Positions 29,655-51,156 of a stretch of 64,000 nt of DNA are shown piece after piece. Within the stretch, counting starts at the first letter, position 1, and the number at the start of each line of letters is the position of its first letter. The translations under genes were made by a program, and so were the position numbers. The notes under the pieces are model-generated. The model ran no database searches. It had not been told where the DNA came from and saw only the letters and a program-made list of their open reading frames with translations. The stretch is from a virus. The stretch lies in IMG/VR virus record IMGVR_UViG_3300045988_092366. One strand, written 5' to 3'.

Positions 29655-29695
29655 TTCTTAAATATATTATAACATAATATATAGCCAATAGTCAA
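29655..29695 (-). promoter_or_regulatory. Promoter TTGACT-18-tgtTATAAT-ATATTTAAG
   Basis: Reverse complement of cttaaatatattataacataatatatagccaatagtcaa. Confidence 0.6.
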
Positions 29696-29705
29696 CAAAA
29701 AAAAT

Positions 29706-29724
29706 AGGGACTCAAGAGAGTCCC
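29706..29724 (-). terminator. Hairpin gggactcaagagagtccc plus T8 (minus strand)
   Basis: Sits between the RNA-element array and the phosphoesterase promoter. Confidence 0.65.
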
Positions 29725-29740
29725 TACAAAAATATCAATG

Positions 29741-29823
29741 TGTGCGGAAAAAGTTTATTCAGTGCTGGATGGTCATAAAAATTGCTATATGAAGTAACTG
29801 AATAATAATCACGCACATTTGCG
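29741..29823 (-). ncRNA. Two-stem structured RNA element, copy A
   Basis: tgtgcg...cgcaca terminal stem and agtttattcagt/actgaataa inner stem around a 40-nt variable core. Confidence 0.5.
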
Positions 29824-29990
29824 TCTATATAGCTCGCACACTATATAGGCGAGAAAGGGGTTTACAAATAAAGGCAAGGAAAAAGTGTAAAGAGTGTTGG
29901 TGGGGTTGCCTCTTTCTAATGAAAGCTGCTCTTATTTAAACATATAACGAAGTAACTCTTTACTAATCACTTGCCGCACAAGAGAAAGCG

Positions 29991-30066
29991 ATACGGAAAT
30001 AGGTGTTTCAGTTTGAGTAATCAGCTCAGAATGGAGATTTGAAGTATCTGGAACATTATCACGTAT
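29991..30066 (-). ncRNA. Two-stem structured RNA element, copy F (compensatory variant atacg/cgtat)
   Basis: atacggaaa...gtttcagtt...tctggaac...atcacgtat. A 3'-half remnant of a further copy lies at 29948-29982. Confidence 0.45.
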
Positions 30067-30087
30067 CGCCTACTTTAATAAAATGAA

Positions 30088-30195
30088 TGCGGAAAAGGTT
30101 AAATCAGTTTAAACGTGCAACCGACACAGAGCTGGAGTCGAACCAGCGAGTACATTTTTCCAGAATGAAGTAACTGATTTATTATCACGCATTAT
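30088..30195 (-). ncRNA. Two-stem structured RNA element, copy B, carrying a tRNA T-arm mimic in the core
   Basis: aatgcg/cgcatt and aaatcagtt/aactgattt stems. Core (minus strand) contains GCTGG-TTCGACT-CCAGC. Confidence 0.55.
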
Positions 30196-30208
30196 AATAA
30201 ATAAGATA

Positions 30209-30295
30209 AATGCGGAAAAGTTAGATTCAGTGTCTAATTATTAACATACCAAAATTAATGAAGTAACTGAATCTTAATCACGCATTTAATAAACG
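30209..30295 (-). ncRNA. Two-stem structured RNA element, copy C
   Basis: aatgcg/cgcatt and tagattcagt/actgaatcta stems. Confidence 0.5.
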
Positions 30296-30398
30296 TTGGT
30301 GCCGCATCTAGGTACCGCCCCTAGCCAGTCTAAGACAGAAGATTTACAGTCTTCCCCTCGTCTTTAAAGGAATACTGCGGCAATTATAATTTAAAATT

Positions 30399-30504
30399 TA
30401 GTATGCCTTGTCTTGGGTTCGGGAGTCGGACCCGAATGCCTTGCGGCGCTATTTTTTGAGAATAGTGTGTATGCCAGTTCCACCAACCCAAGATAAGGCA
30501 TACT
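30399..30504 (-). ncRNA. 20-bp inverted repeat (19/20 match) enclosing a 66-nt loop with a T-arm-like hairpin
   Basis: agtatgccttgtcttgggtt ... aacccaagataaggcatact. Loop (minus strand) has CGGG-TCCGACT-CCCG and aaaaaatagcgccgc. Confidence 0.5.
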
Positions 30505-30513
30505 AACATGCCT

Positions 30514-30960
30514 TTAATTTGTCTGTTTCTGAATCCCAAGCTGGTCAAAAAACTCGTCTGGAATAAACTTGTCATCCAAAGGCTGATAATCTTTCCAGAT
30601 AATCAGAGGATACCAAGTCTTTGACCACTCGGTAAATTCAGCGAATTCATCATTATATCCAAAAGAAACAGCAAAACCAAACCAGCTTGGTTTGACATGC
30701 GGGAAAGTCTTTTTGATAATTCCCTCGTTGTCAACAAAATCGCCGATACGACCGCAAATAGTACAAACGTTCCTATAAGCATAAGTCCATGTGCCAGCGT
30801 ACTTATCAAAGTAATTGATAACAATGCTCTTATCGTAAGTGTGTTTATGATTGGCTTTCTTCACTGTCTTTTTCTTTTTACGAGCGGGAGCATTGGCCGC
30901 ATCGTCAGGAATATAAGCGTATTTAGTTGCCAATACTTCATCCTTATAAGGATACGACAT
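30514..30960 (-). CDS. Hypothetical protein (148 aa), CxxC present
   Basis: ORF with RBS AAAAGGAGC; the 20-bp IR hairpin lies just 3' of it. Confidence 0.5.
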   Translation of the reverse strand: MSYPYKDEVLATKYAYIPDDAANAPARKKKKTVKKANHKHTYDKSIVINYFDKYAGTWTYAYRNVCTICGRIGDFVDNEGIIKKTFPHVKPSWFGFAVSFGYNDEFAEFTEWSKTWYPLIIWKDYQPLDDKFIPDEFFDQLGIQKQTN

Positions 30961-31005
30961 TTACAAAGCTCCTTTTCTGCTTTTGGATAAATTGAGTAGC
31001 TATCT

Positions 31006-31063
31006 ACTCTGCTGGAATGGTAGGACTCGAACCTACAACAATGCTGGCTGCTTACACATCAGC
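31006..31063 (-). tRNA. 3' half of a split tRNA gene (variable region, T-arm GTAGG-TTCGAGT-CCTAC, acceptor CATTCCA)
   Basis: Acceptor 3' strand pairs 7/7 (one GU) with TGGAGTG of the 5' half at 31544-31550. Confidence 0.5.
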
Positions 31064-31483
31064 TTACCAGTTCTTTACTACTTCCTCCAATTCATAATCT
31101 TTTGCCCAAGTTACTCCCCTGCTTTGCCCATTCTTTGCAGGAAGAACACGAAGTTTTTTATCTGCTCCGCATTCATCGACAGGAATCAAGTAACATTTTT
31201 TATTGAACGAAGTAACAAAATAATCAATTTCATCTTTTGTATATTTATGATGAATTATCTTACCATCTTTACGATTACAGCTTCTTCCACTAAAACTAAA
31301 AGAAGCTCCATTGTCATTTGTATGAGAAGTTTTACTTTGAATTCGTAAAAATTTTCCTCCTGCATCAACTACAAAATCATATCTTTCACAATCTCCATAT
31401 GGAGTTAATACATTGAAACCCAATTTTAAAAAGGCTAACATAGCTTCAAATTCCGTTACGTTGCCTATTTGTTTACTATTCAT
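31064..31483 (-). CDS. PD-(D/E)XK nuclease (Hjc-like), homing-endonuclease-like, inserted inside a tRNA gene
   Basis: GNVTEFEAMLAFLKLGFNVLTPYGDCERYDFVVDAGGKFLRIQSKTSH. The D...D...QxK core is shared with the N-terminus of 38286..39035. Confidence 0.6.
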   Translation of the reverse strand: MNSKQIGNVTEFEAMLAFLKLGFNVLTPYGDCERYDFVVDAGGKFLRIQSKTSHTNDNGASFSFSGRSCNRKDGKIIHHKYTKDEIDYFVTSFNKKCYLIPVDECGADKKLRVLPAKNGQSRGVTWAKDYELEEVVKNW

Positions 31484-31511
31484 ATTTGTTTCATAAAGCT
31501 AGTAAGGTCAG

Positions 31512-31550
31512 GTAAACAGCCGCGTGCTCTACCATTGAGCTACACTCCAG
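31512..31550 (-). tRNA. 5' half of the split tRNA (acceptor TGGAGTG, D-arm GCTC-AATGGTA-GAGC, start of anticodon stem)
   Basis: Reverse complement TGGAGTGTAGCTCAATGGTAGAGCACGCGGCTGTTTACC. The ATG of the nuclease ORF follows about 25 nt later. Confidence 0.5.
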
Positions 31551-31578
31551 CAGGGTAGATAAACCACATTTTGTTCTA

Positions 31579-31647
31579 TTGGAGCGGCAAGACTCGAACT
31601 TGCGACACGTTGAGTTAACAACATTCTACCAACTGAATTACACTCCA
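31579..31647 (-). tRNA. tRNA-like gene (69 nt) with canonical acceptor, D and T arms but a truncated anticodon arm and a 12-13-bp extended acceptor helix
   Basis: TGGAGTG-TA-ATTC AGTTGGTA GAAT-[GTTGTTAACTCAACGTGTC]-GCAAG TTCGAGT CTTGC-CGCTCCA-A. Flanked by ttctattgga/tccaatagaa. Confidence 0.45.
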
Positions 31648-31877
31648 ATAGAACGAATTACTTAGATAAAAGGACGTTATGAAGATAACCGTCAGCTTCT
31701 TCAAACGTATCAAAGCTCTTGATGATTTCAAAACGAACAACAGAGCAATCAGTGTTGACACGAATCGAATAGATGCCGCAAGTCTTTTCACGGCAGATAA
31801 CGAACTTTTTCATAACTTCCTTCTCTCTCTTGGTTTATATATATTATATCATTATATAAACCAGAAGTCAAGAAAAA

Positions 31878-31978
31878 TATGCGGAAAAATTGCATTCAGA
31901 CTATAAGTGCGGCGTACCGCATCCTTAAAATAAAAATTGTCTTCAAGAAGTAACTGAATTCTCGTCACGCATATCAAA
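31878..31978 (-). ncRNA. Two-stem structured RNA element, copy E
   Basis: atgcggaaaa...gcattcagac...gaagtaactgaattc...tcacgcat. Confidence 0.45.
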
Positions 31979-32206
31979 TTACTAATTAAGAAAGAATGAC
32001 ACCCTGCTTTGCCTTGTTAATCTTGCGGCGAAGTTTGCGCATAATGCCGACATTCTCTGAGTTCTTACCCTTGCGATTAATAAGCATCTGATAACGCTGT
32101 TCCATCGTCTCGATTGACTGTGCCATACTTTCTTACCTTTCTCTTGGTTAAATATATTATATCAAATTATTCAACTATTTGTCAAATAATTTTTTATAAA
32201 CAAGGT

Positions 32207-32277
32207 GGCGAGAGGGAAGAGTCGAACTTCCAACTGTTGCATATGAAACAACTGTGATACCTTTTCACCACTCCGCA
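32207..32277 (-). tRNA. tRNA-Met/Ile(CAU)-like, probably degenerate (acceptor stem does not pair)
   Basis: D-arm GTGA-AAAGGTA-TCAC; anticodon arm GTTGT-TTCATAT-GCAAC (CAU); T-arm GGAAG-TTCGACT-CTTCC. 5' TGCGGAG versus 3' CTCTCGC mismatched. Confidence 0.35.
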
Positions 32278-32707
32278 TGTTTGTAGTTTTCACATCTGCC
32301 GAGGTTTGAAAACTACCAAAATATACCAGATTCCTCTTCCCCTAGGCGCTTCTTTTCAAGTATGCGCTGGCCCGCATTGTCTACGGCTACAGAGACGGCA
32401 TATATAAAATCTTGCAAGCAAGATAATATAATCACGTGGACGGTTTCAAACTGGGAAAACCGCCAACCCTTTAATCTATAATCCCTGCAAAAGACTATAG
32501 AAGTCGGGAGACATTTACCTTGCAGCGATAACCTCTCCCCAAGCATTGGATATAACATAATCGCTAGGTGCTATTCTCACCAATTAGACTAACCGCCGCT
32601 AACTCGGCCTGTCCGGGAGTCGAACCCGAATCTTCACCATCACGATTTGTTAACTATATTATACAAAATTACTCGGCGTTTGTCAAGTAATTTTTTAATT
32701 ATTTTGG

Positions 32708-47879: not shown

Positions 47880-48668
47880 ATGAATAAATCAGAGATGTTT
47901 AATTTTCTTGACAATAGGTTTCGTAATTGTAATCCTGAGTTCTTAAAATTGTCTCAGGTATATTTTGAAGATGCCGTTGAAGATACTTTTTATAATTTTA
48001 TTAAGCAAATTGGCAATACTATTGGTGCTGATTGGGTTAATGGTGGTTGTTCTAAATCTGTATTTCATTTTAAAGAGTTTAACAACTATGTGTTTAAGAT
48101 TCCTTATATTGGATTTTTTCATATTGAGGATGAAGATAATCAATATTTTAAAGACTGTGCTGAGCAAGAGCGTGTGCCTACGTATTTCTGCTTTGATGAT
48201 GTAGTCCTTTATAAAAATGCAAATAATGATGGTGCATATCCAGTAGATGCAAATGACTATTGTGCGGTTGAAGAATATATTTATCGTATTGCCCGCAAGT
48301 ATAATGTTAATCAGATGTTTACTAAGACTGCTTTTTTAGGTTTTATATGCGGCGTTCCGGTGTATGTTTCTTCTTGCGCTGGGAAAACATATAGTCGTAA
48401 AAAGAGCAATTGCCGCAAGACGGATAAAATTGCAAAGGCAATGATTGATAAAAGCTGCAAAGAGCACAAAGATAGCTATAGTGAATTTTATACTACAGAG
48501 TGTGGCGTTTTCATTGAAACGTATGGTCGCAGGGCAACTCAACGCTTTATTGATTTTCTTTATAAAGAAAAGATTTCAGACTTGCATACTGGCAACTATG
48601 GTTATGATGCTCTTGGCAATTTGAAAATCATTGACTACTCTGGTTTCCATGACCTAGATGTTTTCTAA
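47880..48668 (+). CDS. Putative atypical (ePK-like) protein kinase
   Basis: Gly-rich loop GGCSKSVFHF; VFKIP (VAIK-like Lys); HTGNYGYDALGN (catalytic-loop-like); KIIDYSGF (DFG-like). Confidence 0.35.
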   Translation: MNKSEMFNFLDNRFRNCNPEFLKLSQVYFEDAVEDTFYNFIKQIGNTIGADWVNGGCSKSVFHFKEFNNYVFKIPYIGFFHIEDEDNQYFKDCAEQERVPTYFCFDDVVLYKNANNDGAYPVDANDYCAVEEYIYRIARKYNVNQMFTKTAFLGFICGVPVYVSSCAGKTYSRKKSNCRKTDKIAKAMIDKSCKEHKDSYSEFYTTECGVFIETYGRRATQRFIDFLYKEKISDLHTGNYGYDALGNLKIIDYSGFHDLDVF

Positions 48669-48676
48669 AATTTTAC

Positions 48677-48706
48677 TTGACAAGTCATATAAACAGATGT
48701 TATAAT
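48677..48706 (+). promoter_or_regulatory. Promoter TTGACA-18-tgtTATAAT; leader TTCCAAGAGAAAGTGA
   Basis: acTTGACAagtcatataaacagatgtTATAATatagg. Confidence 0.65.
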
Positions 48707-48743
48707 ATAGGAAAGTTTTCCTTCCAAGAGAAAGTGATAAAAT

Positions 48744-50204
48744 ATGTCTAAGTTTAATGAAAAGGTTAAGCCCGAGCGTTCTATGTCATACGAGGGCGGC
48801 GAGAATTACAAGAAGGATGTACTTGAGGATTGGATGAATTTCCTGTTCTCTAGCAAGATGGACGATGGTTTCTACGAGAATGCCGACACGCAGCAGACTC
48901 GTTTCATCGAACTTACGAATCTTGTAATTGATAAGTATGGCGCTGAGTTCGCTGGTAAGTGTGCCATGTTTGCACGAAACCAACTTGGTATGCGTAGTGT
49001 CTCGCAGCTTGTTGCGGCTATGCTGAATGGTCAGAGCTTTGAGCGCAAGCGCGATTTCTATAAGGCTTTCTGTCATCGTCCTGATGATATGTCTGAGATT
49101 TTCGCAGCTGTTGACATGCTTGGTGGCAAGCGTTCTCATTCTATGATTCGTGGTTTTGCAGATTATATGTCTGGTCTTTCTGAGTACAATCTTATGAAGT
49201 ATCAGATGAAGGGCAAGCGCTATAACATGTATGACCTTATCAATATCATTCATCCCAAGAGTGGCATTGTTGATGGTTACATGAATGGTAAGCTAGAAGC
49301 TGCTGATACTTGGGAAGTCAATATCTCCACTGGCAAGGATAGTTGGAAGAATATGGTTGAGGGTAATCGTCTCGGTTATCTCGCTCTTATCCGTAATCTC
49401 AACAACATTCTCGCAGAGGACGTTGACGATGAATGGATTAAGCGTAATCTTGTAGACCAGCTTATTAACGAGGTTTCTATCAAGAAGTCTCTTGTATTTC
49501 CTTATCAGATTTATATCGCTTATCGTAATTTAAATGTTCAGAATTTTGCGGTCATCACTGCACTTGATACTGCTTTCCGCATTGCTTGCGGAAACATGCC
49601 AAAGTTGGAAGGTAATTCTGTTATCATGCTTGATGTCTCCGGTTCGATGGAAGACCGCTATGGTAATAAGTCCAATCTCACCATCAAGGAAGTTGGCGCT
49701 TGCTATGCTGCGGCTCTTTACATTAACGGTAATTGCGACTTTGTAAAGTTCGGCAATCGTGCTAAGTCTGCAACTTTCAAGAAGGCTTGCGGCCCATTCC
49801 AAGTAATTCGTGAAATGTGTGAGAACGATAATTGCGGTTATGGAACTGACATTGCTCCTGCTTTCGGTCTTATCAGTGACAAGAAATACGACCGCATCTT
49901 CGTTGTCTCTGATATGCAGGTGATGGCAAGACAGTATACTTATTGGGGAGATAGCACTGACGGTATGTGCAACTATAATAATTATTGTGCTGTACATGGC
50001 CGCACAATTCTTTATAGTTTCGACCTCGGCAACTATGCTGACCAAATTGCTAATCCAGGTAATCCTGACGTCCACCTCATGACAGCTCTGAACGATAACG
50101 TCTTCAAGATGCTTGAATACGTAGAGAATGGCGGCAAGCTGTACGACTACATCAATGATAACTACCATTTCTACGCCAACGATAACGATAACTACCTCTT
50201 CTAA
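48744..50204 (+). CDS. Ro60/TROVE-domain protein with C-terminal vWA domain (Rsr-like)
   Basis: C-terminal MIDAS motif VIMLDVSGSMEDRYG and FVVSDMQ; N-terminal 300 aa have TROVE-like length and composition. Architecture matches bacterial Rsr. Confidence 0.65.
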   Translation: MSKFNEKVKPERSMSYEGGENYKKDVLEDWMNFLFSSKMDDGFYENADTQQTRFIELTNLVIDKYGAEFAGKCAMFARNQLGMRSVSQLVAAMLNGQSFERKRDFYKAFCHRPDDMSEIFAAVDMLGGKRSHSMIRGFADYMSGLSEYNLMKYQMKGKRYNMYDLINIIHPKSGIVDGYMNGKLEAADTWEVNISTGKDSWKNMVEGNRLGYLALIRNLNNILAEDVDDEWIKRNLVDQLINEVSIKKSLVFPYQIYIAYRNLNVQNFAVITALDTAFRIACGNMPKLEGNSVIMLDVSGSMEDRYGNKSNLTIKEVGACYAAALYINGNCDFVKFGNRAKSATFKKACGPFQVIREMCENDNCGYGTDIAPAFGLISDKKYDRIFVVSDMQVMARQYTYWGDSTDGMCNYNNYCAVHGRTILYSFDLGNYADQIANPGNPDVHLMTALNDNVFKMLEYVENGGKLYDYINDNYHFYANDNDNYLF

Positions 50205-50304: not shown

Positions 50305-51156
50305 ATGGCAGAAAATGTAAATAAAATTCAGAATAGGGTTGAAGAGCATCTTGGCGCTATTATTGCCACAGGCAAGTATTGGCAGTATCCATATCTTGTA
50401 TGCGCAGCCAATGGTTCCATGAATTATAATCTATGGGACGAAGAATCTGATGTTGATACCAAGTTGCTTATGATTCCAACAGCATATGATTTGTTCTTGG
50501 ATAAGAAGCATCTTAATAAAGTCGAGATTATGGACAATGACGAGCATTGTACAGTTAAAGATTTTCGAGACTATTTTAAGATTCTCCATAAGGCAAATAT
50601 TAACTTCTTGGAAATTCTTTGCACTGAGTATTATGTTGTTAATCCTAAGTATAAGATTTACTGGGAATATCTTCGTAAACATTGTGATGATATTGCCAAT
50701 CTTAATCCGCAGAAATTAATTTTTTCTTCTCTTGGAATGGCTATGGAAAAGGCAAAGAAGATTTGCCATGATTCTCCTGCAAACCATGAACTGATTGAAA
50801 AGTATGGGTATGTGGCGAAGGAATTGCAACATATCATGCGACTGTATCTGTTTGTCAAGCGTTATCTTATTGATGGAGCGTCATTCTCAGAAGCTATCTG
50901 GATTGATGAACGTAATTCTTTAGGTAAAGAGAACCTATATCGTGATGAAATGATGGCTATTAAACGTTATGGTATTATATATTCGTCAGAAGATGCAAAG
51001 GCAAAGGCAGAACACTATGTAATGAAAATGGACGAGCTTATTGAGAATAATTCTAAGTTTATTCCTGAGCCGTCTAAGGATGCGGTAGATGCACTTGAAT
51101 CAACTCAGTTTGCTATCATGAATTCTTATATGTCCGCAGCCTATAATAAACGATAA
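50305..51156 (+). CDS. Pol-beta-superfamily nucleotidyltransferase
   Basis: Gx9-13-D-x-D/E pattern in CAANGSMNYNLWDEESDVDTKLL; 283 aa. Confidence 0.5.
   Translation: MAENVNKIQNRVEEHLGAIIATGKYWQYPYLVCAANGSMNYNLWDEESDVDTKLLMIPTAYDLFLDKKHLNKVEIMDNDEHCTVKDFRDYFKILHKANINFLEILCTEYYVVNPKYKIYWEYLRKHCDDIANLNPQKLIFSSLGMAMEKAKKICHDSPANHELIEKYGYVAKELQHIMRLYLFVKRYLIDGASFSEAIWIDERNSLGKENLYRDEMMAIKRYGIIYSSEDAKAKAEHYVMKMDELIENNSKFIPEPSKDAVDALESTQFAIMNSYMSAAYNKR

Follow-up and report, generated by a model that had tools for sequence, protein, structure and literature searches.

What are the small repeated RNA elements that lie among the tRNA genes of a gut phage that also encodes a TROVE/Ro60 protein? The question is raised by the IMG/VR virus record IMGVR_UViG_3300045988_092366, analyzed here as a stretch of 64,000 nucleotides (the window), in which an earlier note had seen a family of two-stem elements between positions 29,741 and 31,978 and had proposed them as candidate Y-RNA-like RNAs. 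Ro60 is a conserved protein of RNA surveillance and, in humans, an autoantigen; Y RNAs are its obligate partners. We find that the family and its two helices are real, that the family is linked genomically to TROVE, and that it is distinct from the Rfam family YrlA, with its own stem module, six to eight paralogs and an unusually modular cargo. From the sequence comparisons set out below we think it likely that the six elements of the window act in trans, as small RNAs belonging to a Y-RNA-like family of phages that is associated with TROVE; what exactly they would do with Ro60 is proposed with less confidence.

A covariance model, as the earlier note had called for, was built from the six window copies together with seven divergent relatives (model R1). 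Searched against the 64-kb window, R1 gave exactly six matches, all on the minus strand and scoring 59-75 bits, with the runner-up at 15 bits. The 3′ motif GAAGTAACTG-N8-TCACG, allowed up to three mismatches, also occurs six times in the window against 1.1 expected, always on the plus strand. The five copies that had been claimed previously were all recovered by both means, and the presumed 3′-half remnant at 29948-29982 turned out to belong to a sixth copy that is complete (copy D), of which it forms the 3′ part. The window copies are only 60-75% identical to one another. Scores are given below for R1 and for a second model, R2, which was built solely from foreign TROVE-linked copies.

Copy A (29738-29820, minus strand, 83 nt; R1 74.8 bits, R2 61.5 bits, fold z = -3.3) has the outer stem UGUGCG/CGCACA, the bulged-U helix G-U-GA/UC-C and the inner stem UUAUUCAGU/ACUGAAUAA; UACUUC is present, the variable core is 26 nt long, and the copy is the final gene of its operon. 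Copy D (29870-29978, minus strand, 109 nt; R1 72.4 bits, R2 59.8 bits, with its pairing tabulated) has a 5′ half, GGCAAGGAAAAAGTGTAAAGAGTG, that starts at about 29873, and its RNA stems, GCAAG/CUUGC outer and UAAAGAGU/ACUCUUUA inner, are both compensated; written as DNA letters they read GCAAG/CTTGC and TAAAGAGT/ACTCTTTA, with full compensation. The most divergent of the six is copy F (29987-30070, minus strand, 84 nt; R1 59.2 bits, R2 39 bits, z = -3.0), in which AUACUUC replaces UUACUUC and the inner stem has two mismatches. Copy B (30083-30196, minus strand, 114 nt; R1 74.3 bits, R2 62.7 bits) is the longest and carries a T-arm mimic, described below. Copy C (30206-30289, minus strand, 84 nt; R1 71.8 bits, R2 63.9 bits, z = -4.2) encloses a 27-nt AU-rich hairpin core. 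Copy E (31875-31976, minus strand, 102 nt; R1 70.4 bits, R2 57.9 bits) is solitary, is placed downstream of an open reading frame (ORF) of 46 amino acids, and has the GC hairpin GCGGUACGCCGC in its core.

Every copy shows the same order of scaffold parts: a terminal stem of 5-8 bp, a bulged-U helix, a U-rich asymmetric internal loop, a 9-bp second helix and the hexamer UACUUC. The bulged-U helix, in which 5′ G-U-GA pairs with 3′ UC-C, is invariant. Its 5′ side is the sequence G-U-G-A-U, invariant or nearly so and lying 3′ of the 5′ strand of the outer stem, whose G and GA can pair with the C and UC of UUUC-C and leave the U bulged. UUUCC, which precedes the 3′ strand of the outer stem, and UACUUC, which abuts the 3′ end of the 5′ strand of the inner helix, are both essentially invariant. 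The earlier note had given the copies on the plus strand; the transcribed strand is minus, on which the motifs take the RNA form GUGAU, UACUUC and UUUCC.

Covariation was counted on three alignments, of 94 distinct close relatives, of 33 diverse sequences and of 77 distinct metagenome sequences, the last of which includes none from the clade of the window. For the two helices across the three alignments, standard pairs fill 93-95% of helix cells against 60-71% after shuffling, double changes occur at 14-15 of the 17 pairs, and the covariation score is 0.55-0.84 against 0.14-0.18 for shuffled alignments and at most 0.19 with slid partners. The alignments were fitted to the covariance model, which biases these figures toward structure; the margins are nonetheless large and the compensation is visible by eye. 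The co-varying stems proposed previously are therefore borne out by double changes and by scores above those of the shuffles. The same holds for the suggestion that each copy be folded: the stems are favored, and each copy folds with its ends paired and more stably than shuffled sequence (z = -1.7 to -4.2, minus strand).

The RNA strand is minus, to judge from the flanking genes and tRNAs, the promoters and terminator, the T-loop motif, and the concordance of copies in relatives with the TROVE strand. Around the copies, genes and tRNAs all run on the minus strand, and the T-loop of copy B reads correctly on this strand only. Near-perfect sigma-70 promoters were found on the minus strand at 33224-33195, 32686-32658 (perfect), 32185-32156, 31871-31843 and 29695-29666, so that every one of the short tRNA/small-RNA units has at its head TTGACA-N17/18-TATAAT in perfect or almost perfect form, in several cases with an extended TG. 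The promoter at 31843-31871 (TTGACT-17-TATAAT, 11 of 12 matches) serves a small ORF together with tRNAs and copies C, B, F, D and A, while that at 32156-32185 (12 of 12 matches) drives the 46-amino-acid ORF and copy E. A strong intrinsic terminator on the minus strand (29694-29727; 10-bp stem at 29727-29704 followed by a T8 run) lies directly 3′ of copy A and closes this tRNA/Y-like operon. From this layout, copies C, B, F, D and A would form the 3′ end of a tRNA-containing unit, and the quality of the promoters suggests strong transcription by a host sigma-70-type polymerase.

The window encodes a protein of 486 amino acids on the plus strand (48744-50204) that matches TROVE (Pfam PF05731, E=4.6e-14) and PHROG 850, an RNA-binding protein family (E=7.6e-26). 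In profile searches it also matched the Ro60 of Thermus phage phiLo (PDB 9KOP/9L5Y, E=7e-31), Xenopus Ro60 (1YVP, E=2.6e-5), 9NEN and 2NVO, the last being Deinococcus Rsr. By these Pfam, PHROG and structural-profile matches the protein is a Ro60 homolog, as had been noted before. Its gene is preceded by a plus-strand promoter at 48677-48706 (TTGACA at 48677-48682, TATAAT at 48701-48706), and the stretch GUUUUCCUUCCAAGAGAAAG (48715-48735, plus strand) lies between this promoter and the start codon. In relatives in which no element adjoins TROVE, the gene is abutted by an ORF, and a short stretch of the form UUUUCC...AAGAGAAGGAG is kept, as at 48715-48735 of the window. Because it resembles both the 3′ end of the leader at locus L173 and these loci lacking an adjacent element, the stretch is probably a remnant of a lost TROVE-adjacent RNA copy.

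The genomic link between the elements and TROVE is seen most directly in related phages. A pattern scan of IMG/VR found true copies in 26 contigs of ~63-148 kb, with six or seven copies per genome and the order A-D-F-B-C...E syntenic across contigs; a TROVE gene was detected in 23 of the 26, and the other three are probably incomplete. Among INPHARED phages, none had similar DNA and none had a TROVE more than 29% identical to that of the window. Further TROVE loci were gathered by alignment of TROVE homologs. Where the TROVE protein is 39-71% identical to that of the window, R1 matches lie immediately 5′ of the gene, on its strand, and end 8-150 nt before the start codon, often two or three in tandem with a consensus promoter ahead (e.g. 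loci L176, L177, L179, L181, L183, L185, L173 and L191). All 34 element matches at viral TROVE loci and all 92 at metagenome TROVE loci are on the TROVE strand, and the contig of a Bacilli metagenome-assembled genome shows the same arrangement as the viral relatives. Among the divergent metagenome loci, 46 include 300 nt or more upstream of TROVE; an element ends within 250 nt of the gene in 24 of these and lies within 10 kb in 32. In the clade of the window itself, as in the window, none of the 22 loci has an element within 10 kb of TROVE.

The relationship also holds in reverse. R2 recovered the six window copies at 39-64 bits with no other match in the window, and it gave no match in 71 unrelated viral loci from a control set of 75 (656 kb in all); these control loci are mostly chance matches of the pattern scan with a 9-N rather than an 8-N spacer, and four of the 75 proved to be true members. 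The earlier note had asked for a search for co-occurrence with TROVE and had named, as the outcome that would speak against it, homologs existing only as degenerate tRNA pseudogenes with no TROVE link. Instead, copies occupy the TROVE leader, directly ahead of the gene, in many related phages.

The cores of the family are variable, and part of this variation is tRNA-like. Seventeen of 98 distinct members, typically one long member per locus, carry a T arm, a hairpin and a D arm in the order found in YrlA, and the hairpin of these long members co-varies. YrlA RNAs are defined by a T arm, an acceptor-like hairpin and a D arm in permuted order (PMC4201824), and the Rfam YrlA model aligns locally to the tRNA-like module alone of the L176 long form (model positions 29-81, 26.4 bits), leaving the stems unmatched. 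In the window, the core of copy B contains a canonical T-arm mimic (30131-30147, minus strand; GCUGG-UUCGACU-CCAGC), then a short hairpin, and is without a D arm. This mimic, recognized already in the earlier note, has a stem that co-varies in orthologs (GCAGG/CCUGC, ACAGG/CCUGU). When copy B is aligned to long forms such as L176 9740-9885, the match runs to the T arm and the D arm is missing beyond it; copy B is likely a degenerate counterpart of the YrlA-like long form that adjoins TROVE in relatives.

Other members enclose a whole tRNA. ARAGORN detected a complete tRNA inside the scaffold at L001, L031, L072, L250 and L266, with UACUUC abutting the 5′ end of the tRNA, and a normal-order enclosed tRNA is found in 8 of 195 distinct members. 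Examples are L001 5416-5553 and 5875-6008, L072 599-736 and 1064-1197, L250 17151-17265 and L266 19651-19785, with the identities Val-UAC or Leu-UAG, Thr-UGU, Lys-CUU and Phe-GAA; the enclosed anticodon is not conserved in orthologs (Val-UAC at L001 versus Leu-UAG at L072). L001, L031 and L072 represent a second lineage in which copies are in tRNA arrays and do not adjoin TROVE. The L001 locus has eight scaffold copies among 25 tRNA genes, and L072 and the TROVE locus L256 are probably one 85,987-bp contig. To judge from these positions, relocation of the family to tRNA operons has occurred in two or more lineages.

We favor the Y-RNA-like reading of the six elements because homologs occupy the TROVE leader in relatives, the model of TROVE-linked copies recovers the window copies reciprocally, relatives carry a YrlA-type module, and the TROVE protein of the window is homologous to Ro60; on each of these points the original proposal is supported. 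The YrlA-type module of T arm, hairpin and D arm is carried by long members in relatives; the elements are not Rfam YrlA and are without the published Ro60 motif. With lengths of 83-114 nt, paired ends and an interrupted stem, the copies agree with the general size and architecture of Y RNAs (~80-130 nt). In a predicted pathway, two minus-strand polycistronic units would be transcribed from the promoters at 31871 and 32185, the first ending at the terminator at 29727-29694, and host RNases would presumably excise RNAs of ~75-115 nt with paired 5′ and 3′ ends. The scaffold would then be the docking site for the ring of the phage TROVE/Ro60 protein (48744-50204), and the variable apical cores would act as effector modules, as in other Y RNAs, tethering Ro60 to different partners or gating access to its cavity. 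Known Y RNAs do both, tethering Ro60 to partners such as polynucleotide phosphorylase and gating its cavity (PMC4201824, PMC12135203).

Several observations weigh against this reading. None of the 36 members checked has, on either strand, the published motif thought to contact Ro60, which is GNCGAAN0-1G in YrlA and YrlB and GGUCCGA in animals and Deinococcus; the invariant G-U-GA-U sits at the stem/loop junction equivalent to the site of that motif. Rfam YrlA (RF02553) gave no match to the six copies at E values up to 10, none near TROVE in the window, and none at the gathering cutoff of 69 bits in seven TROVE loci; the best local match is that of L176, at 26.4 bits. The tRNA-like domain of YrlA is found in no window copy (T arm, acceptor-like stem-loop and D arm), five of the six cores have no tRNA-like feature, and only copy B keeps a T arm. 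The window copies are 17-19 kb from TROVE and on the opposite strand, beyond the ~2 kb that separates Y RNA and Ro60 genes in characterized bacteria and phages, a proximity that the family does show in other genomes, and no match lies near the TROVE gene of the window even with filters off. Fourteen of the 46 divergent loci have no element within 10 kb of TROVE, and the co-occurrence was sampled mostly in one broad phage group, in which genes are mostly co-oriented and loci are not independent. Wobble pairs (24 G-U against 27 A-C) do not discriminate the strand, and the enclosed complete tRNAs also fit a tRNA-processing role.

That last role is the chief rival. The scaffold could be a TROVE-independent leader-trailer cassette of tRNA operons whose halves pair around the cargo, directing or delaying processing by RNase P, Z or E or stabilizing the polycistronic transcript, as the position of the window copies and of extra copies in relatives inside tRNA arrays, and the full tRNAs enclosed at the five loci named above, would lead one to expect. 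Yet only 8 of 195 distinct members hold a normal-order tRNA, the element lies in the TROVE leader and away from tRNA genes at 24 loci or more, the enclosed anticodon changes between orthologs, and the invariant single-stranded motifs point toward a specific protein partner, so that we consider a cassette of this kind unlikely. The partner need not be TROVE, and a different protein might be bound or decoyed, either a host enzyme of defense that modifies or cleaves tRNA or the nucleotidyltransferase encoded next to TROVE, in which case a shared pathway would be all that links the elements to TROVE. The frequency of tRNA-like cargo in the family, the nucleotidyltransferase gene directly after TROVE (PHROG 388) and the absence of the known Ro60 motif can each be cited for such a factor. 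Against it, the scaffold and not the cargo is the invariant part, RNA and TROVE share one promoter and transcript in relatives, and no other gene was seen to keep its adjacency to the elements; we hold this to be improbable.

The TROVE leader itself suggests another role, since in relatives the last element ends ~5-15 nt before the Shine-Dalgarno sequence of TROVE. Elements placed there could be cis-regulatory operators for TROVE autoregulation, with the window copies as non-functional relics, but the window copies keep compensated stems and all invariant motifs outside the TROVE leader, and six or seven syntenic orthologs are kept across the clade where relics would decay, which leaves this account only a slim chance. 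Slimmer still is the chance that we are dealing with degenerate tRNA pseudogenes, or with selfish DNA, without RNA function, resembling miniature inverted-repeat transposable elements (MITE) or repetitive extragenic palindromes (REP). Multiple copies, inverted-repeat ends and a place beside tRNA genes would suit that origin, but MITE and REP sequences are near-identical copies at non-syntenic sites, whereas here copies of 60-75% identity keep their stems through double changes, their positions are syntenic between phages, and the single-stranded motifs stay invariant across TROVE divergence down to 39%. Neither ARAGORN nor the Rfam tRNA model (RF00005) made a call on any of the six window copies, and no cloverleaf was found in them.

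Other candidate classes were tried and rejected. As guide RNAs, the cores give only antisense matches of 11-14 nt in the window, about what chance yields, to strands unlikely to be transcribed; ribozymes, C/D-box or K-turn RNAs, retrons, type III antitoxins and terminators were set aside for want of their defining motifs, an Rfam match or a T-run. One subthreshold YrlA match at 31496-31632 (minus strand, 38 bits against 69) is an artifact made of the T arm and 3′ half of one tRNA and the D arm and 5′ half of the next; dimeric-tRNA false positives of this model were warned of by Chen et al. 2014 (PMC4201824). The Rfam scan found no family covering the elements, and a literature search found no paper describing the RNA family.

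The genes around TROVE and the elements have some features of their own. The ORF upstream of TROVE (47880-48668, plus strand, 262 amino acids) had no family match, and its C-terminal ...KIIDYSGF... recurs in the ORF that precedes TROVE in the distant relatives L185, L189 and L255. Downstream of TROVE, the ORF at 50305-51156 (plus strand) is the nucleotidyltransferase (PHROG 388, E=7e-14), and the three genes may form a conserved RNA-metabolism module. Within the tRNA region, a tRNA gene at 31008-31560 (minus strand) is apparently split, with its 5′ half (acceptor and D arm) at ~31553-31500 and its 3′ half (T arm and acceptor) at ~31060-31010; the halves pair via a 19-nt inverted repeat and have ~440 nt between them. 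This insert holds an ORF (31064-31483, minus strand) for a PD-(D/E)XK endonuclease (Pfam PF11645, E=2e-31), its DNA is 68% identical to Enterococcus phage EFP01, and no group I intron model matched it. Between tRNA-Leu and copy C lies an unannotated tRNA-like gene (30296-30382, minus strand) whose acceptor stem has 7 bp and whose CCA end is encoded. The anticodon loop of this gene is CUGUAAA (GUA, Tyr) and its variable arm is long; it departs from the canonical form in the T loop (GGCGGUA) and the D region, and ARAGORN and Rfam both missed it. Some 380 nt of non-coding sequence at 32277-32655 (minus strand), bounded by tRNA-Met and the perfect promoter of 32686-32658, contain a T-arm-like hairpin, CGGGUUCGACUCCCG, at ~32617-32631 and then a stretch resembling a tRNA 5′ half, with no Rfam match and a folding z-score of only -1.1. 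Beside the scaffold copies of the second lineage, ARAGORN called a 96-nt 'tRNA-SeC (tca)' (L001 5558-5653, L031 1157-1252, L072 747-842), which may be a UGA suppressor tRNA hinting at stop-codon recoding there.

If the six elements are Y-RNA-like, they extend what is known of bacterial and phage Y RNAs, which so far is limited to what a single covariance model (YrlA) and a handful of experiments have shown. The family adds a second stem module, different in sequence and found together with TROVE in hundreds of phage contigs from gut and rumen, as well as up to six to eight paralogs per genome, copies in tRNA operons and relatives that wrap tRNAs, a large class of phage Y-like RNAs that Rfam-based annotation overlooks. 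Its bulged U, UACUUC and UUUCC are testable motifs for RNA recognition by a divergent Ro60, and the set of RNAs opens two further questions: which partners the variable modules recruit, and whether tRNA precursors gave rise to Y RNAs. It is conceivable, if doubtful, that the scaffold is a modular Ro60-docking handle that presents interchangeable cargo, from complete tRNAs and permuted tRNA bodies to lone T arms and unrelated hairpins. Were that so, phage Ro60 would be wired into tRNA-array transcripts and could act on phage tRNAs, controlling their maturation or quality, or supply decoy tRNAs to counter the anticodon nucleases of the host, and the family would represent living intermediates in the origin of Y RNAs from tRNA precursors.

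Known RNAs resemble the family to different degrees. Phage tRNA-cluster RNAs, such as the stable RNAs of the T4 tRNA region, are alike in their location in arrays, their size of about a tRNA and, for some, their T arms; the six window copies differ from them in having no cloverleaf, and a two-helix scaffold with invariant motifs and TROVE linkage is, to our knowledge, undescribed for RNAs of this kind. The metazoan Y RNAs (human Y1, Y3, Y4 and Y5) are likewise paralogs of similar size (80-130 nt), with a conserved terminal stem, a single-nucleotide bulge in the 5′ strand and differing apical loops. They share no sequence similarity with the phage elements, having GGUCCGA/UUGACC rather than G-U-GA/UC-C with a different bulged base, and they are separate pol III genes, whereas the copies here are embedded in operons. 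Thermus phage phiLo (PMC12135203; 9KOP, 9L5Y) is closer, since it encodes the nearest solved homolog of the window TROVE family (E=7e-31) with two Y-like RNAs of stem-bulge-stem architecture directly 5′ of it. Its Yrls were identified by a CGAA motif in the internal bulge, a motif that the window family is without, its Ro60 is only ~24% identical to the window protein, and neither paralog expansion nor siting in tRNA arrays is reported for it (PMC12135203).

The nearest parallel is with YrlA and YrlB of bacteria and mycobacteriophages (RF02553; PMC4201824), which also are small RNAs with a 5′/3′ terminal stem and an internal loop. Two-RNA operons upstream of the Ro60 gene are known from M. smegmatis (YrlA/YrlB) and from phiLo (Yrl1/Yrl2) (PMC4201824, PMC12135203), and the paired RNAs ahead of TROVE in relatives of the window fit this pattern. 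The stem module of the present family, GUGAU(GG), UACUUC and UUUCC, replaces GNCGAAN0-1G, there are 6-8 paralogs, some relatives wrap complete normal-order tRNAs, and the window copies are unlinked from TROVE, lie in tRNA operons and include none with a full tRNA-like module. In relatives, the likeness extends to adjacency to and co-transcription with Ro60/TROVE and to the usual presence of two or more RNAs per genome, one of which carries a permuted tRNA-like module while the others, like YrlB, do not.

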